Source of the DNA: a virus | Strand: one strand, 5' to 3' | IMG/VR virus record: IMGVR_UViG_3300048587_001155 | Span: 12,534 to 76,533 of that record | Length of the DNA: 64,000 nt | Shown: positions 1 through 56,505 of the stretch, in pieces | How positions within the stretch are numbered: position 1 is the stretch's first letter | Layout: each line of letters opens with the position of its first letter | The notes under the pieces: model-generated | Told to the model about the DNA's origin: nothing | The model's database searches: none | Seen by the model: only the letters and a program-made list of their open reading frames with translations | Translations under genes and position numbers: made by a program

Positions 1-143
1 TGAACAAGCATTGATCGATACCGGTCGTGGCGTTTGATCGACTGACAGCTCCATGTCAATCACTCGGAGACAGGGCAATTTACCAATCTCCACATTAGAT
101 ACCTAAGCCGCACGCGCTCGGCGTGCAACGAAAGGAGCACATC

Positions 144-869
144 ATGATTCAGGAGCACAACAACTCAGTCATGATCTGGGTCGGTGCAGTTGCATTGAAA
201 CAAGGATTTGGAGGTTGGGCATTCTTGCTTCAGAGGAAGGAGACCGGTCTGATCGAGTCCGGATTCGGCCGGAGTGTTGACACGACGAAGTACCGCATGG
301 CACTTGAAGCAGCGTGCCAGGCTGTCAGCCGATGTAAGCAAAACGACGTCATAACCATCGTGTCTGATCTCACCTACCTTGTTAATGGAATCGAAGCCGG
401 TCTTCGTCGAAAGACTATCGCAGGCGAAGAGGATAACGTCGATCTCTGGAAACGCCTCTTAATTGGAGCAAACTCTCGAGAAGTAAAAGCCCTTTGGACG
501 CGAGATTATTCTGTTCGCGCTAATCGCTGGTGCAACATACAGGCAAAGCGGTCGGCGCAAAGTCTTCGGGACGGAAGGTCAGTGCCATCAAGTCTTCCAC
601 TTCCAGAGTCCAAGTGCATCGATCAAGACAAGATGGCAGCATTTGCATCCGAGCTGAAGCGAACCAACTGCGTTCCGCAAGTTATGGAATGCTTGGAAAT
701 ATCAGCTCTCTCGTTCGACGGTGATTTGATCTCAATCGAACTATCGCGTGATCCCTCTGGAACCGAGAAGTTCAAGCTTGAGAGAGCGGTCAAGAAGGCG
801 ATTCGATCAATGGCTGTCAAGCAAGAGAGGATTAACTCGCGTCCGGCAAAAAAGAATCGACCTCGCTGA
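144..869 (+). CDS. RNase HI-like protein, catalytically degenerate
   Basis: GGWAFLL, TTKYRMALEAA, SDLTYLVNGI and NVDLWKRL align to RNase HI; D10, E48 and D134 equivalents are replaced; SD AAAGGAG precedes ATG 144. Confidence 0.8.
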   Translation: MIQEHNNSVMIWVGAVALKQGFGGWAFLLQRKETGLIESGFGRSVDTTKYRMALEAACQAVSRCKQNDVITIVSDLTYLVNGIEAGLRRKTIAGEEDNVDLWKRLLIGANSREVKALWTRDYSVRANRWCNIQAKRSAQSLRDGRSVPSSLPLPESKCIDQDKMAAFASELKRTNCVPQVMECLEISALSFDGDLISIELSRDPSGTEKFKLERAVKKAIRSMAVKQERINSRPAKKNRPR

Positions 870-930
870 GAGACCCGTTCACACACAGGGAGATTGTTGA
901 AAGTTTCGATAGATAACTGAGGATCTCGCA

Positions 931-1869
931 ATGGAAGAATCTGATTGGCTCGTCGAGGCGAAGGGAAGTTGCTCTAGCGTTTCCGGCGGACCGGGAGCAT
1001 GGCGTGTTCGAGTACTCGAGAAGACTAATGGACGACACGAAGAGCAAAGCGGAAACAGTTCGAATACATCTCCGCTCGAGATGGAGCTGACTGCGGCATT
1101 GAACGGGCTTCGAATGATACCGAAACGAGGATCGGTGACGCTTATGGTTCGGAACCCGATCATCGTAAATGTTTTGCGAGGAAGCGAACTGCCATCGAAG
1201 CACAATGATTTGTGGAGATGCATTCAAGCGGAGTCATTGCCAAGAAGTGTCAACGCTGTAACAGTTCGCAATTTCGTCGAGATCGACCGCGCGATCGAGC
1301 AACGAAACAAGAAGGAGCAGAGAGAGAAAGCGAGGATGTCTTCGACGTCGGAACTCGAGACTCTGCCACTCTTCGACCACGACATCACGATCTACACGAA
1401 CGGCGCAAACTCCAATAAAGTTTGCGGGTGGGCATTTCTACTTCACAACAAGCGTACTGGTGAGATGGAGACCGGCGCCGGTTCGATTCGTCAAACAAAT
1501 GTGAATCGGATGAAGCATCTGGCGATAGTAGAAGGACTCAAACGAGCTCCGCAGAATGGGCGGATCCGGGTTCTCACCGACATGAAATATCTCGCTGACG
1601 GAATTACTTACAAGATAGATGTGTGGCATAGCTGGGGATGGCGCAAGTCAGCGAACGGTTGTGTTGAACGGCCGAACCCCGATCTTTGGGAAGACGTTTG
1701 GCAATCCAAGAGGGTGAGCGACGTTCGAGTTGACTGGGTGCGAAGTAACACCGGGATCGAAGGGCAAGATTGGTGCGCAACAGAAGCTACTCGACAGGTG
1801 GATATCGCTCTTAGAAAGCGAGCAGGAGAGCAGGCCGAACTACCTCGTTTGGATTCGACTCAGCCATGA
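931..1869 (+). CDS. Tandem double RNase HI-like domain protein, catalytically degenerate
   Basis: Domain A: KGSC..GGPGAW, MELTAA, NDLW. Domain B: IYTNG, NRMKH, TDMKYL.DGI, W..WGWRK, NPDLW, WVRSN. Confidence 0.85.
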   Translation: MEESDWLVEAKGSCSSVSGGPGAWRVRVLEKTNGRHEEQSGNSSNTSPLEMELTAALNGLRMIPKRGSVTLMVRNPIIVNVLRGSELPSKHNDLWRCIQAESLPRSVNAVTVRNFVEIDRAIEQRNKKEQREKARMSSTSELETLPLFDHDITIYTNGANSNKVCGWAFLLHNKRTGEMETGAGSIRQTNVNRMKHLAIVEGLKRAPQNGRIRVLTDMKYLADGITYKIDVWHSWGWRKSANGCVERPNPDLWEDVWQSKRVSDVRVDWVRSNTGIEGQDWCATEATRQVDIALRKRAGEQAELPRLDSTQP

Positions 1870-2261: not shown

Positions 2262-3584
2262 ATGATGAAATCAGATGAACAGTTAAGCAGCGCTCAAGTT
2301 ACGACTCCCTTGCGGGTGATCGAACTTTTTTGGCGTCTACTGAGACATCGTCGGCCTGCTATTGGGCATGTCCTCGACATGGGGGCGGGCGATGGACGAT
2401 TCGCGAAAGCCGGGGAATTCAGATCATACTTGGGAATAGAAATCGATCCGACAAGATCGAGGCATGCAAAGATCCCGAAGAACGCCAAAATTATAAGAGG
2501 CTGTGCGTTCAAGCATTCAGGCAGAGGTTATGATGCCTGCATTGGTAATCCTCCTTATGTCCGACATCACGATATCGAGGGGAGTTGGAAACAGCGAACA
2601 CTCCAAAGTCTTTCAAAATCGCTCGGAGTGAAGCTAGATTGTCGTTTCAATCTTTACCTCTACTTCATGTGCCTCGGTCTCCTGCGCACTGCTCACGATG
2701 GGATATTGGCAGTCGTCGTTCCGCACGAATGGATTGGCCGTCCATCATCGCGTCCACTTCGCGAGTACATTAGCAAACAATCGTGGGACGTAGATGTCTA
2801 TCGGTTCACTCAGCCCATTTTCGAAGGAGTCCTGACGACTGCTTCGATCACATTCATTGATAAGTCATCATCATCCGGCTCGTGGCGACACTATGATCTT
2901 TCGAATAACTTCGAAATGAATCCGAGGCCGATTCCTCGAAAATCTGTTCCTCAAATCCTCCCGTACGAACGCCGGGGAAAAATTTGGGCTATTCGCGGCC
3001 TGAGTCCCGGGTCACAGCGTTTCTTCGTTCTGACGGAGGGGGAACGAATTCACAACGGACTCAGGAAGTCGGACGTAGTTCCATGCGTGACGTCAATGTC
3101 TTCTATGCCGTCCGAAGTTGCCACATTATCGGTAAGTGCATTCAAAAAACACTTTGTGAACGCTGGCGAAAAATGTTGGTTGATAAAATCGCACTCAGAG
3201 AGCCCTAGCGATTCATTGGCCGCGTACCTTGGGACCGTTCCAGCTGGGATTCGATCAAACTTCACCTGCTCATCTCGCACCGTCTGGCATCAATTCCGTA
3301 TGCCGAAACCTCCGGACATCCTGGTGAGCTCAGGATTCGTTTCGTTTGGACCTAAGGTAGTCGTGAATGAAATTGGCGCGATTGGGATCGGAACTATTCA
3401 TGGCGTGCACGGGGTCCCAAAGTCCAAACGGATCGGTTTGCGAAATTTCTTAGTGTCAACGAACTTTGAAAAACAGATTATTCCACATGCAAACACGTTG
3501 AAGAAAATCGAAGTTCGCCAGCTTAACGCAGCTCTCAATCGATATTCCACAGAGGTGAATAGAAATGCCGCGCGTCCTCTCTGA
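2262..3584 (+). CDS. N6-adenine DNA methyltransferase (gamma/Eco57I-like motif order)
   Basis: Motif I VLDMGAGDGRF, motif IV CIGNPPY, then NLYLYF and a C-terminal TRD-like region. Confidence 0.88.
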   Translation: MMKSDEQLSSAQVTTPLRVIELFWRLLRHRRPAIGHVLDMGAGDGRFAKAGEFRSYLGIEIDPTRSRHAKIPKNAKIIRGCAFKHSGRGYDACIGNPPYVRHHDIEGSWKQRTLQSLSKSLGVKLDCRFNLYLYFMCLGLLRTAHDGILAVVVPHEWIGRPSSRPLREYISKQSWDVDVYRFTQPIFEGVLTTASITFIDKSSSSGSWRHYDLSNNFEMNPRPIPRKSVPQILPYERRGKIWAIRGLSPGSQRFFVLTEGERIHNGLRKSDVVPCVTSMSSMPSEVATLSVSAFKKHFVNAGEKCWLIKSHSESPSDSLAAYLGTVPAGIRSNFTCSSRTVWHQFRMPKPPDILVSSGFVSFGPKVVVNEIGAIGIGTIHGVHGVPKSKRIGLRNFLVSTNFEKQIIPHANTLKKIEVRQLNAALNRYSTEVNRNAARPL

Positions 3585-5787
3585 GCAAGATATTCCGTTT
3601 CAAACCGAAGGACGCTTGCTGCAAGAGCTAGGGCTGCGACTCGTCGCTAGTCCGCAGGTCGCACTTGTCGAACTCATTAAAAACGCTTACGACGCCGATT
3701 CGCCAATATGCGATGTTCGGTTAGAGGGCCAGAGAACGCTGATCGTTGAAGATCACGGAAGCGGTATGACGCTTGACGATTTTCGAAACAGATGGATGCG
3801 AATCGCGACATCTGACAAGGCGACTCTTGCTACGTCGCCGAGGTTCAAACGTCCGCTCACTGGCGCAAAAGGTATTGGCAGATTCGCCGTGAGATTTCTG
3901 GGGAATCATCTCCATCTGACGTCAGTTGCATACGACAAGAGTCGAAAACTCCTCACTCAACTTGACGCCGATTTCAATTGGACCGCTCTCGATCGAGAAA
4001 GAGACATCTCTCACGCAGTTGTTCATTGCAAATTGATTGCAGCACCAGCCGGCGCACAAACGGGAACCGTATTGCGAATTAGCTCTTTACGACAAGAAGT
4101 CGACTTTGCCCGCGACCAGTCCTTACGATCGGATGTCCTCCAAATCGTCACGCCTTTGCAGGGGTTGGATCGCGGTAAATTTGCGACGGAAAATGGAGTA
4201 GGAAGCGCCGATCCTGGATTCAAGGTAACACTTCCCGGTACCGATTCAGACGAGAATCTCGACCTCGCAGAACTCGTATTGAATAACTATTGGGCAAGAT
4301 TGACTGTCGAACTTGTTGGAGCGCGTCTCAAGATAAAGGTGCACCTACACGAGTCTGGTGAAACGAGCGAACTAAATCTGCGTGTCGCAAGCGTCATCTC
4401 CAAAGGTTTCTTTGCCGATATCCGTTACTTCCCGCGTCGCAAGGGAGTTTTTAGCCAAAAGGGTATTGATGGACGGAAGGCATGGAACTGGGTTCGAACG
4501 AACTGCGGTATTAAAGTCGTTGACCACGGCTTTCATATTCATCCATATGGATTCAAAAAGGACGACTGGCTGCATCTTGATCATGATACGTCACACAATG
4601 AGCGGCAATGGAGCACACGAATTGCCCAAGAGCATTTTCCGATTAACCAGCTGATTCAGAAAGACCCGGCCATTAACCCTGCTCTGAATCTCGCATCAAA
4701 TTTTCAGGTAGTTGGCGCCGTATTTATTGAGACAGCTCGTGACGCAGGAAATAAAGATGTAATCGATTTATTACCTGCAATGGATCGCGAGGGCTTACTC
4801 GAAAATCAGGCTTTCCTTCAGTTAGTTGAATTCGTGAGGAGTGGGCTTGAATTTCTTGCGCATGTTGACAAGCGTGCTCTCTTGAAGAAGCTAGAAATGG
4901 ATGCGAAGCTTGCGGCCAAGTCGGCCCGGAAAGACATCCAGCAAGCAATCTCCCATATTCGTAATAGTCCGACACTGACATCTGCCGACAAATCGAGGAT
5001 TGTCAAGCAATACGCATCGCTCGCTGCGCAAGTCGAGAAACAAGAGGAGTATTCTCAGCAAGCGCGCAGAGGCCTCGTTACCATGGGGCTGCTCGGCGTT
5101 GTTGCTGGATTTATGACGCATGAAAGTCGCGCAATACTTCATGATCTAGAATTAACCGTTTTGGCCATACAACGACTGGCAAAGAAGGATCGATCACTCC
5201 AGAAGGACGCGGATCAGCTCGAGCATCGTCTAAACACATTTCGCGGGTATCTCGACTATTCTCGTTTATTCATTCAAAGTGCACGGGTTCTACGCGATGA
5301 ACCTCTAGCCGTTGCTAGCCAAATTCGCCGAATTATTGCGAACTTTGGCTCTGTTGCCAAAGATCGGGGCATCAAAGTGAGTATTGATGTGGATGAATCT
5401 GTAAAGACACCTCCGCTGCCGGTAACTGCTTACAGTGGCATCTTGCTGAATCTTTTTACCAATGCGGTGAAAGGAATTCTTGCAGCGGCCGGTAGCACTC
5501 CGAAGCCACTGATCAGCTTTCGATCGTGGAATGAACAGGATCGACATATCGTTGAAGTTGCTGACAACGGTATTGGTATTCCACCGGAATTGAGACGAAG
5601 AGTGTTTGATCCTCTTTTCACCACCACTTCGGATGTCGGCAACCCGCTTGGATCCGGAATGGGCTTGGGCTTAACATTAGTCGAACAGGTTGTACGCGAA
5701 TTTGAAGGAAGGATAACCCTTCTGGAAGTTCCGCCTCCGGGATTCAGCACGTGTTTTCGAGTCGTCTTTCCGAGGAAAGATAAATGA
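3565..5787 (+). CDS. GHKL (MORC/HATPase_c_3) ATPase fused to a C-terminal histidine kinase
   Basis: N-terminal ELIKNAYDAD, DHGSGM, GAKGIGRFA, GTVLRI; C-terminal H-box FMTHE, N-box NLFTNA, DNGIGIP, FDPLFTT, GMGLGL. Confidence 0.9.
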   Translation: MPRVLSEQDIPFQTEGRLLQELGLRLVASPQVALVELIKNAYDADSPICDVRLEGQRTLIVEDHGSGMTLDDFRNRWMRIATSDKATLATSPRFKRPLTGAKGIGRFAVRFLGNHLHLTSVAYDKSRKLLTQLDADFNWTALDRERDISHAVVHCKLIAAPAGAQTGTVLRISSLRQEVDFARDQSLRSDVLQIVTPLQGLDRGKFATENGVGSADPGFKVTLPGTDSDENLDLAELVLNNYWARLTVELVGARLKIKVHLHESGETSELNLRVASVISKGFFADIRYFPRRKGVFSQKGIDGRKAWNWVRTNCGIKVVDHGFHIHPYGFKKDDWLHLDHDTSHNERQWSTRIAQEHFPINQLIQKDPAINPALNLASNFQVVGAVFIETARDAGNKDVIDLLPAMDREGLLENQAFLQLVEFVRSGLEFLAHVDKRALLKKLEMDAKLAAKSARKDIQQAISHIRNSPTLTSADKSRIVKQYASLAAQVEKQEEYSQQARRGLVTMGLLGVVAGFMTHESRAILHDLELTVLAIQRLAKKDRSLQKDADQLEHRLNTFRGYLDYSRLFIQSARVLRDEPLAVASQIRRIIANFGSVAKDRGIKVSIDVDESVKTPPLPVTAYSGILLNLFTNAVKGILAAAGSTPKPLISFRSWNEQDRHIVEVADNGIGIPPELRRRVFDPLFTTTSDVGNPLGSGMGLGLTLVEQVVREFEGRITLLEVPPPGFSTCFRVVFPRKDK

Positions 5788-6866
5788 AAAGTCTGAATAT
5801 ACTTCTCTTCGATGACGTGGAAGAGAATCTGCGTGAGGTTCAAGATCTTATTTCAAAAGAGCTTGGCGTTAAAGGGAAGGTGGAAGCATATCCTCTTGTT
5901 CGGAGAGAAACCTCTAAGCTGGGCGACCCGGAGCCATTCGAAGACATCATCGAGCGCGAGCTCAGGAAGCGTGCGGAGCCGGTCAGCCTAATAGTCGCAG
6001 ACCGAGATCTATCGCGAGCCACAGATTACCGTGGACTGTCAGAACCAACCGTTCGCCGCGCCGCAGAACGACTTGCGATACCGGAATGTGGCTATGCACG
6101 CGGTGAATCCGGGGACGCTATCTCATATTTGGATATTGGCGAGAAGAGAGAGGAGTGTATTCGCCTTAGCCTCACTCCCCAAGATGTGTTCGCTCGGAAG
6201 GTGGTCGACATCGCCGAAGGATTCGAATGGATGAAGGAGCAGGTCCCAAATGTAATGCAAAAGATGAAAGGCAGACAACCATCTCCGGCAAAGATACTCG
6301 CCGAATTGTTGGGAGTGCCCGATCAAGTTGAGAAAATTTCCCTCTTTGCTGTGGGCGATAAAAATCGATTGGGTGACATCCCCAGACTTGGAAAATCTTC
6401 TTCAGACGAGAGAGCACGGAGGCTCGCCTATCTCTTGGGTTATTGGCTGTGGGACTCTGTCTTATTTTTTCCTGGGCTTGTAGTAAATGAAATAGCCGCA
6501 TCAAGTTACTTGAATATCAGCGTAGAAGAGTTCAGAAAAAAGGATGTAGCAAGTTTATTCTCCGCGGCCAAATACTTGGGTCCGTTCTCCTACGCGAGAG
6601 GGCCTCTCTGGTGGCGCGGTAGGCTTGATTCACTACTCGGTGATTTCGAAGACGGAAACTCTCTAGCGACGACGAACCTCGGTCGAGAAGTCGCACCATG
6701 CTTATGCTCCGTAGATCCTTCGATACAGGCGGGCTTCGTTTGCGTACTGTCAAACAAACCTGTTAGTAGCAAAAACTCAACAGGCAAATTGCTTTGGTTG
6801 CCCCGAGGCGCCGATTTGGCTCGGGTGAGTCGCACGATGATCGATGAGTTTGGTCCATGGCTGTAG
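5784..6866 (+). CDS. Divergent response-regulator receiver protein with C-terminal Cys-containing domain
   Basis: ILLFDD acidic pocket and LIVADRDLS phosphoacceptor-like Asp; ATGA overlap with the kinase gene. Confidence 0.7.
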   Translation: MKSLNILLFDDVEENLREVQDLISKELGVKGKVEAYPLVRRETSKLGDPEPFEDIIERELRKRAEPVSLIVADRDLSRATDYRGLSEPTVRRAAERLAIPECGYARGESGDAISYLDIGEKREECIRLSLTPQDVFARKVVDIAEGFEWMKEQVPNVMQKMKGRQPSPAKILAELLGVPDQVEKISLFAVGDKNRLGDIPRLGKSSSDERARRLAYLLGYWLWDSVLFFPGLVVNEIAASSYLNISVEEFRKKDVASLFSAAKYLGPFSYARGPLWWRGRLDSLLGDFEDGNSLATTNLGREVAPCLCSVDPSIQAGFVCVLSNKPVSSKNSTGKLLWLPRGADLARVSRTMIDEFGPWL

Positions 6867-6876
6867 AGAACGAGAT

Positions 6877-7572
6877 ATGTCACAATTTCCAGGACAAGCC
6901 CGGTATGCGGATCTCATTGCTTCATTCACTCGACACCTTCAGACTCCCTGTGGAATGATCGACATCTTTCCTAGATCCGAAGCTGAATGGTTTAGGTCTA
7001 CCCAAAAGACGGCTTCACTTTCGGAATGGAAGTTCGAAATCGTAATGCACCTTCCGCGATGGAAGGCCAGGAGAAAGGAAGTTTATATTATCCTTCATGC
7101 AACCGAGACCATACAGCGAAGGTCTGGCGGGGCTGCGATAGTGACGAAATCCACCGTGCGCCTTTCATATTGCGATGTTGAAGAAGAGTGCGAGCTCCTC
7201 CATTCAATTCACTATGACTTTGACAAAATAGTAGAAAAGCATCCTCTGTTCCATGCACAGGTAACGAATGAAGCTCCTTCATTACCCGATGTAGCTCAAC
7301 AGGAACTCGAGATCATTCTTCCAAAGCCGCGTTCTCCGCTTTTTAAATTTGCACGAATTCCAACTTCCGACATGACTCTCCCTTCGGCACTTTTGTGCTT
7401 AGCGGCAGATCATTGCGGAGACCAGGAAGCGTTTGACGCATTCCGCGAAAAGGTTATGTCACTTCGCGAGAAAATGCATTACGCCGATGCGTCGATGATT
7501 ACGAATCATGTAAGTGGATCAAAATTACCAATTCTTTGTAGCTCGGTTTGGTTCGGAAAGTCGCCTGAGTAG
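6877..7572 (+). CDS. Hypothetical protein, DUF2290-like
   Basis: IHYDFD....HPLFHAQ ... RIPT pattern recalls DUF2290; last gene of the operon. Confidence 0.5.
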   Translation: MSQFPGQARYADLIASFTRHLQTPCGMIDIFPRSEAEWFRSTQKTASLSEWKFEIVMHLPRWKARRKEVYIILHATETIQRRSGGAAIVTKSTVRLSYCDVEEECELLHSIHYDFDKIVEKHPLFHAQVTNEAPSLPDVAQQELEIILPKPRSPLFKFARIPTSDMTLPSALLCLAADHCGDQEAFDAFREKVMSLREKMHYADASMITNHVSGSKLPILCSSVWFGKSPE

Positions 7573-14591: not shown

Positions 14592-14711
14592 CAACAGCGA
14601 CCGCGCCCCGTTCGCGGGGCGTGCTGCTCTTGCCATTCGGTAAGTGACGTTCCAGGGCGTCCTAGTCCTTGGACAGCGTGCGGCGCTGTGAGCCCGCGTG
14701 GGGTTCGATCC

Positions 14712-15590
14712 ATGCAATACACTGAGCGAGCGCGTGAATCTGCGGAGGCGATTGTTGAACAGTTCAAGAATCCCGCGAATCTACCAAAGGCCTTGGCGTC
14801 GATTTGGCTCGACATTTCGGACGATCGGCCCTGCGCCAAGTGGTCCTGGAATAACCGGTTTTTGGTCGCGTTGTTCGGCGGAGGAGATGCGCGAGGCTTT
14901 CGCCAGTGGCAGGAAGTAGGGCGCAGCGTGAAGAAGGGGGCGAAGAGTTTCGCCATACTTGCACCGAAAAAACGGATGATTTCCGTCAAAAATCCGGAGA
15001 CTGGCGAAGAGGAAAAGCGGGCCATCGTTACCGGGTTTACTCACGTTTCCGTCTTCTCGATCGACAACACCGAAGGCGAGCCGTTGCCGGTCAATGAAGA
15101 GCACAAGGCCTTTGTGCAATCGTTGCCGTTGCGTGAAGTCGCGGCATCGTGGGGACTCGACGTCGAATTGGTGAACGGGAAAGGGAGATTTCAAGGCTAC
15201 TACTCGTCGAGTCATTCCGTGATTGCCCTTTCGGTATCGAATCTTTCCACGTGGGCCCATGAGCTAATGCACGCGGCAGACGATCGGCGCGGCGCTCTTC
15301 AGAAGGAAGGGCGTGAAACACTCTCGTACATGGAAGGCGAAATCGTTGCCGAGTTAGGCGCGTCAGTTCTGCTGTCGATCCTTGGTCAATCTGTTGATGC
15401 CGATCTCGGAGGCGCTTGGCGCTACATCACGGCTTACTGTGAGAAGCACAAGCGTGAGCCGATCAGCGCTTGCTCGATGTTGCTTGATCGTATCTGCGGG
15501 GGAGTCGACTTGATCTTGCGGACCGCTGCGGAACTCGCGAGCACTCCGACGGAGGCTAACAACCAACAATTCGAGCGAATCGCGGTTTAA
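14712..15590 (+). CDS. ardC: ArdC-like antirestriction / ssDNA-binding protein with zincin-like domain
   Basis: WSWNN, GFRQWQEVGRSVKKGAK, VF...TEG; HELMH; E.VAELGA, YI..Y. Confidence 0.8.
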   Translation: MQYTERARESAEAIVEQFKNPANLPKALASIWLDISDDRPCAKWSWNNRFLVALFGGGDARGFRQWQEVGRSVKKGAKSFAILAPKKRMISVKNPETGEEEKRAIVTGFTHVSVFSIDNTEGEPLPVNEEHKAFVQSLPLREVAASWGLDVELVNGKGRFQGYYSSSHSVIALSVSNLSTWAHELMHAADDRRGALQKEGRETLSYMEGEIVAELGASVLLSILGQSVDADLGGAWRYITAYCEKHKREPISACSMLLDRICGGVDLILRTAAELASTPTEANNQQFERIAV

Positions 15591-15668
15591 CTGACTGGCA
15601 GGGCTCAACCGGCCCTCTCATGAAGCGGGCCGGCTAGCCTTGGCAGTTGGTTTATCCGGAGGAATGAA

Positions 15669-16004
15669 ATGTCTTGGCTCATACAGCGTGACAGATGGAG
15701 TGAATACGACGAGGGACTTCATGACGTGTTCACCTTCTTCGGTGATCGTCTCGAAGTCACTTGCCATGCTCGGGGTGTTTCGTGTTGGTCGATCGACATC
15801 GGCACGAATGGGGAAGTCAACATTTTTTCGCTGAAGGGACGGCACACGTTCTACCGTGACACGCGGCTGAACAGAGCATGGCGGTTCTATCTTGCTCTGA
15901 GGCTTGGCAAACCGCTCATCACGTTCCGATTCGGGGAGGCGCGGAAACGTTATCAGCTGAATTCGGAAGCGTACGGCTTTAGGCCAATCGTCTCAAAGTC
16001 ATGA
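15669..16004 (+). CDS. Hypothetical protein
   Basis: SD GGAGG precedes ATG; 111 aa. Confidence 0.6.
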   Translation: MSWLIQRDRWSEYDEGLHDVFTFFGDRLEVTCHARGVSCWSIDIGTNGEVNIFSLKGRHTFYRDTRLNRAWRFYLALRLGKPLITFRFGEARKRYQLNSEAYGFRPIVSKS

Positions 16005-16017
16005 AAGGTGGCGTGAA

Positions 16018-16269
16018 TTGAATCACACAATCGGCCTGACCGGAAAGCAAATCTGCCGACTGATGCGCAAGCACCATGTCACGATCAAAGCACTATCGAA
16101 GCGGATGGGTATCACGATGAAACGCATCCGCCATGTCCGTACCAATGGACTCACCGATTCGCCCAATCCCTACCACTACTCATGGAACTGGATCGAAGCA
16201 ATCACCGGAAAGAATCCGGGCCCACATTGGTGGTATGCGATTGAGTCTGACATCAAGGGCATCAAATGA
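16018..16269 (+). CDS. Small HTH-like protein
   Basis: LTGKQICRLMRKHHVTIKALSKRMGITMKRIRHVR helix-turn-helix pattern. Confidence 0.65.
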   Translation: MNHTIGLTGKQICRLMRKHHVTIKALSKRMGITMKRIRHVRTNGLTDSPNPYHYSWNWIEAITGKNPGPHWWYAIESDIKGIK

Positions 16270-16327
16270 CCTGGATGCCAAATGACTGTGACACTTACCA
16301 ATGAAGAGAAAGCGTGAGGTAATCCAC

Positions 16328-17596
16328 ATGGCGAAACCCCGTCGGGGGCGTGAGAAATCATCGCCCCTTCCGGCACGTCCGAAGGTCTACGGTTACGCGC
16401 GAGTGAGCACGTTCCGTCAGACGGGTCGACAATCGATCGATACCCAGCGTGAGCAGCTCAAGCTATTGGCAGAGCGAAACGGCTTGGGGCCGATCGATCA
16501 GATCTTCATCGATGAGGAAGCAAGCGGAGGAACGCCGATCGTCCAACGGCCGGCGGGGCGTGATCTTTGCTTCCTAGTCTCTCCCGAAGATGTTGTGCTG
16601 CTCACCGATCTTGACCGCGCGTTTCGTTCTACGTCGGACGCGCTCGAGACGTTATTGCGTTGGCATGCCGTCGGGATCCGCGTGATCATCCAATCCCTCG
16701 AGGGTTGGGGAACGCTCGACATCAGTACGCCGATCGGGGAGTTCTTTCTCACCGTTCTTGTAGCCGTGAAGAAGCTGGAACGAAATCAGCGCGTGGCCTT
16801 CGTGCAGCAATGCTCGCGCGATGCCATGCTCAAGGCCGAAGCCGAGGGATGGGATTGCACGAGTCGGCGGTACGCTCCTGTGGGCTTCGACTGGGCTTAC
16901 CTCGGATCGGACCGCGGGAAGACTCGTCTGGTTCCGAATGAGGACGATCTTGAAAGCATGTCGATCATTGGTGTGCTGCGAGCTCAGGGAAGGGCGTACG
17001 ACCAAATACGTGATGAGATCCTTCCCCAAATCGGGCGTGAGAAGAGACTTCGCGCTATCCGCCGACAGATCGGCAACAAAAGCATGAATCATCGGCGGTA
17101 TGAGATCAGACGTCATCAGAACGTGTGGCAATGGCACGCGATGGAAAAGGCCTGCGTGTGGTGTGAATCGCACCGTCAGGAACAGGAAGAACTGGCAACT
17201 AGGGTTGCATCAAATCACCCGGAATGGGCAAATCGTTGGGGGCTTGGGAACTATGTTCAAGGATTGGCGACGGAGACGAACGGCAACGATGGAAACGGAT
17301 TCGCAGGAACCGCGCCGCCACATGTTGAAGCGATCGGGGAAGGGGAACCCTCCGCTCGTTTTCCAGGGGATCTTGATTGCCGAAGTGACGGGCCCGAACT
17401 ACTCGGACGCGAAACGCTGGCACGATCTGCGCCTCTACCGAACGGTGAATCAACGGTATGTGGTGGAGATTGTGTTGGTGAAGGCAATTGCGGGCCAAAA
17501 GAGCCATCACTCGGCCGTGATGGTCGAGGATCTGACGGAGGCGAGGGAAGCCTTTTATTCTCACGATCCAATGCAAGGGATCGATTTCCCCAATAA
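16328..17596 (+). CDS. Serine recombinase (resolvase/invertase family)
   Basis: VYGYARVST, Q...L, DEEASG...RP, DLDRAFR, G.F...V......ER; C-terminal tail overlaps the next gene. Confidence 0.88.
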   Translation: MAKPRRGREKSSPLPARPKVYGYARVSTFRQTGRQSIDTQREQLKLLAERNGLGPIDQIFIDEEASGGTPIVQRPAGRDLCFLVSPEDVVLLTDLDRAFRSTSDALETLLRWHAVGIRVIIQSLEGWGTLDISTPIGEFFLTVLVAVKKLERNQRVAFVQQCSRDAMLKAEAEGWDCTSRRYAPVGFDWAYLGSDRGKTRLVPNEDDLESMSIIGVLRAQGRAYDQIRDEILPQIGREKRLRAIRRQIGNKSMNHRRYEIRRHQNVWQWHAMEKACVWCESHRQEQEELATRVASNHPEWANRWGLGNYVQGLATETNGNDGNGFAGTAPPHVEAIGEGEPSARFPGDLDCRSDGPELLGRETLARSAPLPNGESTVCGGDCVGEGNCGPKEPSLGRDGRGSDGGEGSLLFSRSNARDRFPQ

Positions 17597-54090: not shown

Positions 54091-56505
54091 ATGGCGAAAC
54101 GCACATCATCTTCCATGCGTTGTGAGCCCAACTTCTCGGAGATTCCTCAAGATTTGTTGAGTCTCGATCAGTGGGTTTTGTGGCGAAAGATGCGCCGAGA
54201 CGGAAGGATGGCAAAGCTCCCGATTTGTGTTGCCGATCCATTATCTGCCGCTGACGTGTCCAACTCATCAACATGGAGCTCGTCAGAGAGAGCGATTAGC
54301 CAATACAAGGCTCTTCTCTCGTCTACAAATCCGATGACCGGCATTGGCTTTGTCTTCTCGGCCGACGACGGCTTTGCCGGCATCGACATTGACGACTGCA
54401 GAGATGCTAAGACAGGGCTCATCTCGCTTTGGGCCCGGCGAATCATCGATAAGTTCGGTAGCTACACCGAGGTGTCTCCGAGTGGAACAGGCGTTAAGAT
54501 CTTCGTCCGTGCAGAACTTCCCGGAGCGGGCTTTCGATCCCAAGTAACGGCCGACGGCGATCGCTGGACAAAGCAGTGCAGCGATCCCAAGGCCAGCGAG
54601 ATCGAGATTTACGATCAGAACCGTTACTTCACGGTCACTGGCCGCAAGCTCAAGAACACAACATCTGAGATCCGATTTTGCCAGGACGAACTCGACGAGC
54701 TGGTGAGCAAGTATTTTCGCCGTCCGACGAAGGCGTGCCGAGTCAATGGCCTTCACAAGGGATTGAACCCTTCGCCGTCGGACGATGAGCTTCTCGAAAA
54801 GGCACGATCAGCAGCTAACGGCGACAAGTTCGTGAGTCTCTTCGCCGGGGACATCAAGGGATATCCGTCGCAATCTGAGGCCGATCAGGCACTCTGCAAC
54901 ATGCTTGCCCATTGGAGCAAAGGAGATGAAGCACAGATCGATCGAATGTTTCGCCGATCAGGTCTAATGCGATCCAAATGGGATCGAAAGGACTACAGGC
55001 AACGAACGATTGGAAGAGCAATTGAACAATCTGCGTACCAAATGCCAGGACACTCCCATACAGATCTCAAAGATGCTGGCGGCAACACCGAATGTAATTT
55101 CCCTGGAGGAGATACTCGTCCCCAAGCACTTCGTTGCACCGATACCGCGAATGCCGAACGCCTCAATCGATTGTGTTTCAACAACGTTAAGTATGTCTCC
55201 GAATGGAAACGGTTCATTGAGTGGGATGGAAGGCGATGGAAGATCGTTGATGACATCGTCATCCAAGATCGCGCGAAAAAGGTATCGGTGTTGATTTTTG
55301 AGGATGCTCTGAAGCTATCGGGTGATGAGCAGCAAAAGCTCATGTCATGGGCTAGGCAGTCTGCGAATGCGCCGCGTATCGAGGCGATGGTGAAACTTCT
55401 TCGACCGATGGTCTCGATGGACGCGACGGCGTTAGATCGAGATCCATGGCTTCTTAATTGTCCGAACGGCACCTTGGATCTTCGGGACGGCCAATTGCAA
55501 CCTCACCGGAGAGAGAATTTCATCACAAAGCTGTGTCCAACAGACTTCAATCCGAATGCGAGATCCCCATTCTTCGAGGCAGCCGTCTCCAAGATTTTCA
55601 GGGGAGACGATCAACCTGAATTGGTCGATTTTTTCCAGCGTATATGTGGTTACATGCTCACCGGCGATGTCAGCGAGCAAGTCATGTTTATCTTCTGGGG
55701 AAATGGGTCTAACGGAAAATCGATGATCACAGAACTGATTCTGTCGATCATGGGACAAGACTACTCGCGAAAGGCACCGCACAACTTCTTAACGACGAGT
55801 AAGACCGAGCGCCACCCTACCGAGCTTGCAGATCTTTTCGGTAAGAGATTTGTTGTGGCCACGGAAACCGATGACGGCCGAAAACTTGCGGAGGCCTGCG
55901 TCAAGGAGCTCACTGGGGCGGATACAATCACTGCGCGTCGAATGCATCAGGATAACTGGAGTTTTCGTCCGACACATAAGCTTGTACTCGTCACAAACTA
56001 TCCTCCCACGGTACATGGAACAGAGGATGGCATCTGGCGCCGATTAGTAATCATTCCATTCACCGAACGCTTCTGGGATTCCGAAAAGGGGGAGTCAGGT
56101 CCGAGTAATCGAAAGATGGATAAACGTCTCCTTCGAAATCTCGAACAAGATTCATCAGCAATCCTGGCATGGATGGTCCGCGGCTGCCAGCAATGGCAAC
56201 AATTTCGAGGTCTCCGAATCCCGCCATGCGTTCTAAGTGCGATGCAGGAATACCGTGATGCCGAGGATCTGATTCGCTCCTTCATCGAAGATCGTTGCGT
56301 CATCAACAAAGATGCTCGAGTAAAGACAAGCGATCTTTATTCGGCATATCGCGACTGGTCAAAAATCAACGGAGAAGATTCGCTTCGTCAAGTCGCTTTC
56401 GGTGATCGCCTTACAAAACTGGGATTTACTTCTCATCGCGGCGCCCAGGGAGTTCGTTACCGACTCGGTATCGAACTAGAAGTATCCACAGGGGGGGGGA
56501 CTTAG
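54091..56505 (+). CDS. P4-family primase-polymerase / SF3 (D5-like) helicase
   Basis: GIDID, TEVSPSGTG, EIY...RY.T.TG, SEAD, LLNCPNGTLDL, Walker A GNGSNGKS, KELTGAD.ITAR. Confidence 0.92.
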   Translation: MAKRTSSSMRCEPNFSEIPQDLLSLDQWVLWRKMRRDGRMAKLPICVADPLSAADVSNSSTWSSSERAISQYKALLSSTNPMTGIGFVFSADDGFAGIDIDDCRDAKTGLISLWARRIIDKFGSYTEVSPSGTGVKIFVRAELPGAGFRSQVTADGDRWTKQCSDPKASEIEIYDQNRYFTVTGRKLKNTTSEIRFCQDELDELVSKYFRRPTKACRVNGLHKGLNPSPSDDELLEKARSAANGDKFVSLFAGDIKGYPSQSEADQALCNMLAHWSKGDEAQIDRMFRRSGLMRSKWDRKDYRQRTIGRAIEQSAYQMPGHSHTDLKDAGGNTECNFPGGDTRPQALRCTDTANAERLNRLCFNNVKYVSEWKRFIEWDGRRWKIVDDIVIQDRAKKVSVLIFEDALKLSGDEQQKLMSWARQSANAPRIEAMVKLLRPMVSMDATALDRDPWLLNCPNGTLDLRDGQLQPHRRENFITKLCPTDFNPNARSPFFEAAVSKIFRGDDQPELVDFFQRICGYMLTGDVSEQVMFIFWGNGSNGKSMITELILSIMGQDYSRKAPHNFLTTSKTERHPTELADLFGKRFVVATETDDGRKLAEACVKELTGADTITARRMHQDNWSFRPTHKLVLVTNYPPTVHGTEDGIWRRLVIIPFTERFWDSEKGESGPSNRKMDKRLLRNLEQDSSAILAWMVRGCQQWQQFRGLRIPPCVLSAMQEYRDAEDLIRSFIEDRCVINKDARVKTSDLYSAYRDWSKINGEDSLRQVAFGDRLTKLGFTSHRGAQGVRYRLGIELEVSTGGGT

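Follow-up and report, generated by a model that had tools for sequence, protein, structure and literature searches.

Ribonuclease HI (RNase HI) is known from every textbook, and dead versions of it made in the laboratory are standard probes for R-loops. In retroviral reverse transcriptase (RT) and in UvrC, an active domain of the RNase H fold has an inactive one at its side that acts as a tether or platform (PMC5603734, PMC10085695). Our literature searches returned no publication that deals with dead or tandem RNase HI of bacteria, with phage arrays of such genes, or with an architecture fusing an active to a dead RNase HI domain. Here, we describe an array of four genes, g1 to g4, that encode five RNase HI-like domains on one strand and of which only g1 is catalytically intact. 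It lies in the IMG/VR provirus record IMGVR_UViG_3300048587_001155 (76,533 bp; rated complete by CheckV), and the stretch under analysis, hereafter the window, comprises bases 12534-76533 of that record, 64,000 nucleotides in all. The domain family itself is well known; for the array and for the active-plus-dead architecture, we found no published description. Plain positions below are those of the window, and the prefix G000:C1 denotes record numbering, in which window base 37 is G000:C1:12570.

Results

Organization of the array

The first gene, g1 (G000:C1:11101-11811, + strand), lies wholly upstream of the window and encodes an intact RNase HI with the catalytic residues DEDHD, followed by a tail (Pfam, 5.6e-37). 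The second, g2 (P0002; G000:C1:11833-12570, + strand), reaches into the window with its 3' end only (1..37) and encodes a dead RNase HI paralog with a strongly basic linker (+12) and a tail at its C-terminus. Two open reading frames (ORFs) complete the row on the + strand: ORF1 (g3, P0003; 144-869), which encodes 241 amino acids with AAGGAG placed 7 nt before its ATG, and ORF2 (g4, P0004; 931-1869), which encodes 312 amino acids with GAGGA placed 8 nt before its ATG. Intergenic gaps measure 21-106 nt, and a Shine-Dalgarno-like site is found ahead of every gene. The initial annotation of this DNA dealt with part of the array, ORF1 and ORF2, with the intact g1 and the dead g2 situated directly upstream of the window.

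ORF1 comprises an RNase HI-fold domain (residues 1-143; 144..572) and a C-terminal tail (residues 144-241 and stop; 573..869) built from two short helices, a β-hairpin and a long helix. This tail module, with its β-hairpin and long helix, also ends g1 and g2; the ORF1 tail had no family or fold match in Pfam, PHROG or the Atlas (TM below 0.5). ORF2 comprises two RNase HI-fold domains, A (residues 1-136; 931..1338) and B (residues 151-312 and stop; 1381..1869), with a linker between them (residues 137-150; 1339..1380) that is of low model confidence and identical in a relative. Identity among the paralogs of the array is no higher than 30-35%, and no similarity is seen at the nucleotide level, which marks the copies as old. 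Recent duplication of the array genes was considered and dropped on the same absence of nucleotide similarity.

Loss of the catalytic residues

We read the catalytic columns D10, E48, D70, H124 and D134 from MAFFT alignments with intact relatives and from hmmalign. Where g1 reads DEDHD, ORF1 has G/A/D/Y/N, domain B has N/K/D/N/A and g2 has S/E/Q/Y/F; domain A, with K/E/R/F/gap, is the most degenerate RNase HI-fold domain of the array. The residues are exactly those that the initial annotation had assigned when it called one domain in ORF1 and two in ORF2, all with broken active sites. In a phmmer alignment to solved RNase HI, V rather than G falls at the D10 column of ORF1, a non-Asp residue either way. 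None of the four dead domains has Asp at D10, each retains at most two of the four carboxylates, and His124 is gone from all of them. Matching losses are seen in the orthologs, with GADYN in P0008 (g3) and KERF- and NKDGE in P0005 (g4).

In E. coli RNase HI, one substitution at any of D10, E48 or D70 is enough to abolish activity. Structures of E. coli mutants at such positions were present among the PDB matches of the ORF searches. Judged by its residues, g1 is the only member of the array predicted to be able to cut RNA:DNA hybrids, the other four domains being putative pseudo-enzymes that keep the fold and a basic surface; ORF1 and ORF2 are both predicted to lack RNase H cleavage activity.

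Retention of substrate-contact residues

The initial annotation had described two substrate-binding motifs as persisting. This holds for N.DLW, which is kept in ORF1, domain A and domain B; the Trp-rich basic protrusion (W..WGWRK), by contrast, survives among these three in domain B only (WHSWGWRKS) and is deleted from the other two, leaving alignment gaps of 11 residues in ORF1 and 17 in domain A. Domain B and g2 both keep the Trp-rich DNA-binding handle together with the pocket residue N100. Across the columns T43/N45/W85/W90/N100/W104, contacts are largely kept in domain B (N/N/W/W/N/W) and g2 (S/H/W/W/N/W) and largely lost in ORF1 (T/Y/K/gap/N/W) and domain A (S/L/gap/gap/H/W). Non-catalytic nucleic-acid binding by the dead domains is plausible from these residues, less securely so for ORF1 and domain A, where loss of the basic protrusion and of N44 and N45, which contact RNA, makes canonical hybrid recognition doubtful.

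Fold of the dead domains

Residues 14-134 of ORF1 and residues 150-286 of ORF2, within domain B, match Pfam RNase_H at 31.3 and 57.9 bits, respectively, over a cut-off of 25.8. Along the record, Pfam finds four consecutive PF00075 matches on the same strand. Domain A has no Pfam match; it was recovered as the fifth domain by a custom RNase HI hidden Markov model (HMM) built from 55 single-domain matches (1.3e-12), and it matches its paralog g2 by BLASTP at 6e-9. Against the NCBIfam model for ribonuclease HI (NF001236), ORF1 scores 48.8 bits and ORF2 87.3 bits, both well under the 160-bit equivalog cut-off.

Structure prediction, which had been proposed as a check, gave an RNase H fold for ORF1, domain A and domain B, with a five-stranded sheet and helices A, B, D and E. 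By AlphaFold2, the predicted local distance difference test score (pLDDT) is 85-97 for both ORF2 domains and mostly above 90 for residues 1-143 of ORF1. A Foldseek search with the ORF1 model returned E. coli RNase HI as the top PDB matches (E 3e-13). In the model of domain A, the RNase H core is complete (β1-β3, αA, β4, αB, αD, β5, αE). The domain is therefore not truncated at its end, as had been supposed: its last helix is present, and only the stretch with the His loop and D134 is absent. All three units, ORF1 and the two domains of ORF2, are basic: their isoelectric points (pI) lie at 9.3-9.5, that of the ORF1 domain being 9.5. A complex prediction for g1 with ORF1 lent no support (score 0.01; mark 0.32), an outcome that counts neither for nor against binding.

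Conservation and selection

Orthologs of g1, g2, g3 and g4 all occur on one related contig of 12,742 bp. Amino-acid identity to this contig is 83% for g1, 84% for the RNase H part of g2, 90% for ORF1 and 89% for ORF2. Counted as differences per residue, the active g1 domain stands at 13/155 and its tail at 27/81, the ORF1 domain at 16/143 and its tail at 9/98, domain A at 9/136 and domain B at 25/155. The most degenerate RNase HI-fold domain, domain A, is thus also the best conserved between the relatives.

A second relative, a metagenome-assembled genome (MAG), holds orthologs of g1 and g2. No orthologs of g3 or g4 were found in this MAG, whose contig ends in an insertion sequence (IS) element. 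Ratios of nonsynonymous to synonymous divergence (dN/dS) were calculated by the Nei-Gojobori method with significance by Fisher's test, and among the dead units covered part of g2 and a fragment of domain B. Against the MAG, the RNase H part of g1 has a dN/dS of 0.08 (dS 0.71) and its tail 0.44, and the first 107 codons of g2 have 0.17-0.23 (Fisher p 6e-6). Domain B was compared over codons 178-297 (120 codons) with a metagenome contig of 362 bp, at 88% identity; from 40 of the 44 differences, its dN/dS is 0.30 (Fisher p 2e-4). g2 and domain B are under purifying selection. For ORF1 and domain A, the case for selection is indirect and is made because both are better conserved than their active neighbour, synonymous divergence of the neighbouring genes being ~0.6-0.7. 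Three alleles of domain B vary in clustered surface segments, with the core motifs fixed.

The suggestion of the initial annotation that the array does not look like simple decay is borne out by the intact frames and ribosome-binding sites of ORF1 and ORF2, by the 89-90% identity of their orthologs relative to 83% for g1, and by the dN/dS of domain B and of g2 (~0.2). The dead copies appear to be kept by selection rather than to be junk, and they are probably non-cutting helpers.

Fused active and dead RNase HI proteins

An exhaustive phmmer search with ORF1 against 1.84 billion representatives gave 410 matches, the best of which, beyond the gene itself, are multi-domain RNase HI proteins. Twenty-one such proteins occur among the best 150 matches, and 18 of the 21 combine exactly one DEDHD domain with one or two degenerate domains; in the remaining three, both sites look active, with DEDSN in the first domain of one. 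Likewise, seven of the nine two-domain proteins among the closest homologs of g1 pair an active with a dead domain. Among the proteins matched with ORF1, we noted a protein with an RNase HI domain, a dead RNase HI domain and a Nudix-like C-terminus (P0038), one in which an N-terminal extension precedes dead, active and dead domains (P0012), and one with a single active and two dead domains, the latter with E48K as in domain B of ORF2 (P0011).

We aligned 35 dead domains of these unrelated proteins and found that D10 is kept in 9%, D70 in 17%, H124 in 3% and D134 in 6%; N16 and N44, which in crystal structures of RNase H with hybrid contact the RNA strand near the cut, are almost gone too. Residues T43, N45, W85, W90, N100 and W104, which in those structures correspond to the phosphate-binding pocket and the DNA-binding channel, are kept at 71-97%. 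g2 and domain B fit this class pattern, and ORF1 and domain A deviate from it.

Among 201 genomes sampled from the phylum of the MAG, PF00075 is found in 135, nearly always once. In three of the 201, an active-plus-dead fusion of ~320 amino acids is the only PF00075 match (L023:3233-4192, L024:2066-4288 and L025:2061-2900), and none of the genomes holds an array. In each of these three fusions, a basic linker joins an intact RNase HI to a dead RNase HI domain that has kept a W..GWKKRGWKT handle, an arrangement that looks like an undescribed housekeeping architecture. Searches for related loci with ORF2 in viral and genome contigs, and with g2 in viral contigs, found none; the metagenome scan for related loci returned only an ordinary rnhA beside dnaQ in a high-GC bacterium, and g1 found four phages in viral contigs, each with one normal RNase H.

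Prophage setting

The 12.5 kb upstream of the window hold a capsid-fusion gene, a primase-helicase and a tyrosine integrase, then g1 and g2. Directly after the integrase gene is the 3' part of a transfer RNA (tRNA), with the T-arm, acceptor and long variable arm (G000:C1:10338-10395, - strand; L002:39-96). This is probably the attachment (att) core between a satellite-like element on the left and the array-bearing prophage on the right. The tRNA-like core is matched by many unrelated metagenome contigs, at ~85x summed depth. Rightwards from the att core, through g1 into g2, the MAG contig JAIEPU010000172.1 (L016) matches the record at 88.8% identity; left of the core, the two are unrelated. 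Because this identity starts exactly at the core, the array belongs to the element on the right and not to the satellite-like integrase element. No second copy of the att core was found in the 76.5-kb record, in which no tRNA was called, and the far end of the element is therefore undefined.

Between the att core and g1 lies a non-coding stretch of 700 nt (G000:C1:10396-11100; L002:97-801) in which identity to the MAG contig stands at 93-97%, against only 85% in the RNase H genes beside it (dS 0.6-0.7). Folding of this leader gave z = -5.1 for the + strand and z = -2.5 for the - strand, and it contains the direct repeat GTAACAGTT and a perfect 10-bp hairpin. Beyond the tRNA-like core, it had no Rfam match, and an exact-pattern scan of viral contigs for the hairpin was empty. 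Candidate roles for this stretch are an attP arm or operator region on the one hand and a structured leader or non-coding RNA of the RNase H operon on the other.

Downstream, the array opens an ~11-kb island of 49-50% G+C, against 55-60% in the surroundings. The island also holds an Eco57I-like methylase, a 740-amino-acid double-GHKL protein and three genes without assigned function. Separated from ORF2 by a gap of 392 nt, a four-gene operon (2262-7572) encodes the Eco57I-like N6-adenine methylase, the GHKL protein and two products without assigned function; no nuclease is evident in it. The 740-amino-acid protein comprises an N-terminal MORC/BbrUII-like GHKL ATPase and a C-terminal ATPase of the histidine-kinase type, and its N-terminus resembles the BbrUII and HgiDII restriction enzymes. 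PADLOC-DB 2.0 has no family that matches ORF1 or ORF2 at E <= 0.01, and for the neighbouring methylase PADLOC returned generic MTase_II models only, plus a weak mad2. Across the whole 76.5-kb record, including the 12.5 kb upstream of the window, no RT was found (PF00078 at E <= 1). The proposal of the initial annotation that the domains might modulate a retron or other RT finds no partner here, and a retron link of the array was dropped.

Farther along the window, an ArdC-N-like protein and a serine recombinase were observed at 14688-17596, and a second primase-helicase, of the D5/NrS-1 type, at 54091-56505. The record appears to be a composite of two or more mobile elements. Among ordinary RNase HI proteins, those nearest to g1 come from Planctomycetota MAGs, and three DNA runs from wastewater or sludge contain short, near-identical contigs over the array; hardly any cover extends beyond it, which argues neither way, and the listed holders include no RNA run. 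The host is probably Planctomycetota-like, from wastewater or sludge.

Discussion

With an intact RNase HI as the first gene of the row, our reading of the dead copies shifts from stand-alone decoys to accessory partners. It is possible, and this is the reading that we tentatively put forward, that they act as non-catalytic nucleic-acid-binding or scaffold partners of g1, a Rosetta-stone argument drawn from the fused proteins. Under such a scheme, g2 to g4 would be expressed together with g1 from the att-proximal end of the integrated phage-like element. The dead domains would serve to hold RNA:DNA hybrids or primer-template junctions, to measure them or to protect them, and g1 would then process what they handle. 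The array would represent an unfused, expanded version of the active-plus-dead two- and three-domain proteins of uncultured bacteria. We infer all three components of this scheme, namely nucleic-acid binding, cooperation with g1 and a role in phage replication or conflict. Our confidence in the partnership is held down because two of the three domains in the window have lost canonical binding elements.

Several observations weigh against a partnership with g1. ORF1 and domain A have lost the basic protrusion as well as N44 and N45, and ORF2 contains no active domain at all, unlike the fused proteins taken as the analogy. In the AlphaFold2 model of ORF2, moreover, domains A and B have no fixed mutual packing (predicted TM-score 0.53). 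The array is restricted to one small lineage, comprising the window and two relatives, and neither the 201 genomes nor the collections of viruses, genomes and metagenomes yielded a further one. In each of the two relatives g2 is disrupted, so that this copy at least can be lost: in the MAG (L016:9600-11173), it has a 1-nt deletion with two stop codons near codons 16-21 and an IS3-family insertion after about codon 107, where the contig ends, and on the 12,742-bp contig a frameshift at codon ~165 affects its tail. A common origin of the paralogs is likewise left undecided by a tree of 179 RNase H domains, which places the dead domains on long branches with weak support (34-62) and speaks neither for nor against local duplication.

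The lesions in g2 in both relatives, the long branches of the dead copies and the rarity of the array are also what might be expected of decaying tandem duplicates that drift towards loss, their open frames being a matter of time. We hold decay to be very improbable, given dN/dS values of 0.17-0.30 for the two dead units measured and unbroken g3 and g4 orthologs whose conservation exceeds that of the active g1, with synonymous divergence of the neighbouring genes at ~0.6-0.7. Copies as old as these are, besides, still open, and all four genes have good ribosome-binding sites. That the domains are still nucleases with a rearranged active site, relying for instance on the neighbouring Asp in g2 (SQD) or on E52 with D119 in domain A, is hardly credible. 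One or two acidic residues do lie near the site in every domain, with the g2 Asp one position past the D70 column; the shared loss of Asp at D10 and of His124, the retention of two carboxylates at best and the sensitivity of E. coli RNase HI to single substitutions all argue otherwise. Decidedly unlikely, too, is a role as RNase H-fold scaffolds unconnected with nucleic acid, with the shared tail as the functional part. It would apply especially to ORF1 and domain A, in which the handle, N16, N44 and N45 are missing and, in domain A, Lys and Arg occupy two carboxylate positions; the ORF1 tail is better conserved than that of g1, and the retained N.DLW and GGW motifs double as core-packing elements. 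All three domains are, however, basic, the tail has no recognisable family or fold and is lost from g2 in a relative, and nothing points to any specific alternative partner.

Proteins of phage conflict, of the moron type and independent of g1, present another candidate, one that we place on the unlikely side. By binding to hybrids or R-loops, or by mimicking RNase HI towards another protein, the dead copies would shield, sense or block something in conflict between phage and host or between phages, for example in superinfection exclusion, in counter-defence or as an input to the methylase/GHKL operon. Consistent with this are the att-proximal accessory position in a low-GC island shared with the methylase and a GHKL protein of restriction-enzyme-like N-terminus, the clustered surface variation among the domain B alleles and a narrow, lineage-specific distribution that is usual for conflict genes. 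Against it stand the lack of any PADLOC match for ORF1 or ORF2, the absence from the record of an RT or other hybrid-making system, and the gap that separates ORF2 from the methylase. The dN/dS of 0.2-0.3, moreover, is purifying and not diversifying, and the same active-plus-dead pairing recurs in RNase HI genes that look like housekeeping genes. A more general proposal, which we regard as unlikely, is that pseudo-RNase HI is a widespread accessory clamp for hybrids or DNA, comparable to the hybrid-binding domain of eukaryotic RNase H1, and that the prophage has expanded it to one cutter and four binders, two of them stripped to the core. Such a set might control RNA:DNA hybrids, as in R-loop-primed replication, or shield or expose them in superinfection or defence, and the structured 700-nt leader, which is unusually conserved, may take part.

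Returning to the dead copies as partners of g1, the locus offers dead RNase HI that is natural and kept by selection: a phage-like element carries four such domains next to a single active enzyme. Should these domains bind hybrids or modulate the active enzyme, the processing of R-loops and primers in bacteria and phages would gain a further level of regulation, and as hybrid binders they would come ready-made from nature. If they do nothing, the array would be a well-dated case of slow pseudo-enzyme loss. A broader lead than the lineage-bound array comes from the architecture that pairs active with dead RNase HI, which recurs and sometimes supplies the only RNase HI of the cell.

Comparison with known systems

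Retron and defence RT systems need an RT gene, which the record lacks. The connection (tether) domain of retroviral and LTR-retrotransposon RTs and the inactive RNase H domains of UvrC and Prp8 resemble the array in that a degenerate RNase H-fold domain persists next to an active one, as a tether or platform or in contact with nucleic acid (PMC5603734, PMC10085695); they belong to other branches of the RNase H-like superfamily, and the likeness is an analogy of principle and not of membership. To bacterial RNase HI (rnhA; PF00075, NF001236; E. coli and T. thermophilus structures such as 2rn2 and 1ril), the array is clearly homologous and has the same fold. g1 is a normal DEDHD member, and domain B shares the Trp-rich basic protrusion and N.DLW. 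Unlike that enzyme, ORF1 and both ORF2 domains lack the Asp/Glu metal-ligand set and His124, the basic protrusion is deleted from ORF1 and domain A, a tail of ~100 amino acids with an unmatched fold is attached to ORF1, and ORF2 fuses two dead domains.

Close counterparts are the fused proteins of RNase HI and degenerate RNase HI (P0123, P0014, P0174, P0176 and P0248, the three-domain P0011 and P0012, and L023 3233-4192). In contrast to these, the array consists of separate genes except in ORF2, neither ORF1 nor ORF2 joins a DEDHD domain to a degenerate one in a single polypeptide, and there are four dead domains for each active one, two of them without the handle; the array also resides in a prophage and is not the only RNase HI of a genome. 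The resemblance is at the level of the operon only, where one intact RNase HI is combined with dead RNase HI-fold domains. Among residues, those for binding are largely kept in g2 and domain B, and E48K is common to domain B and the dead domains of P0011.

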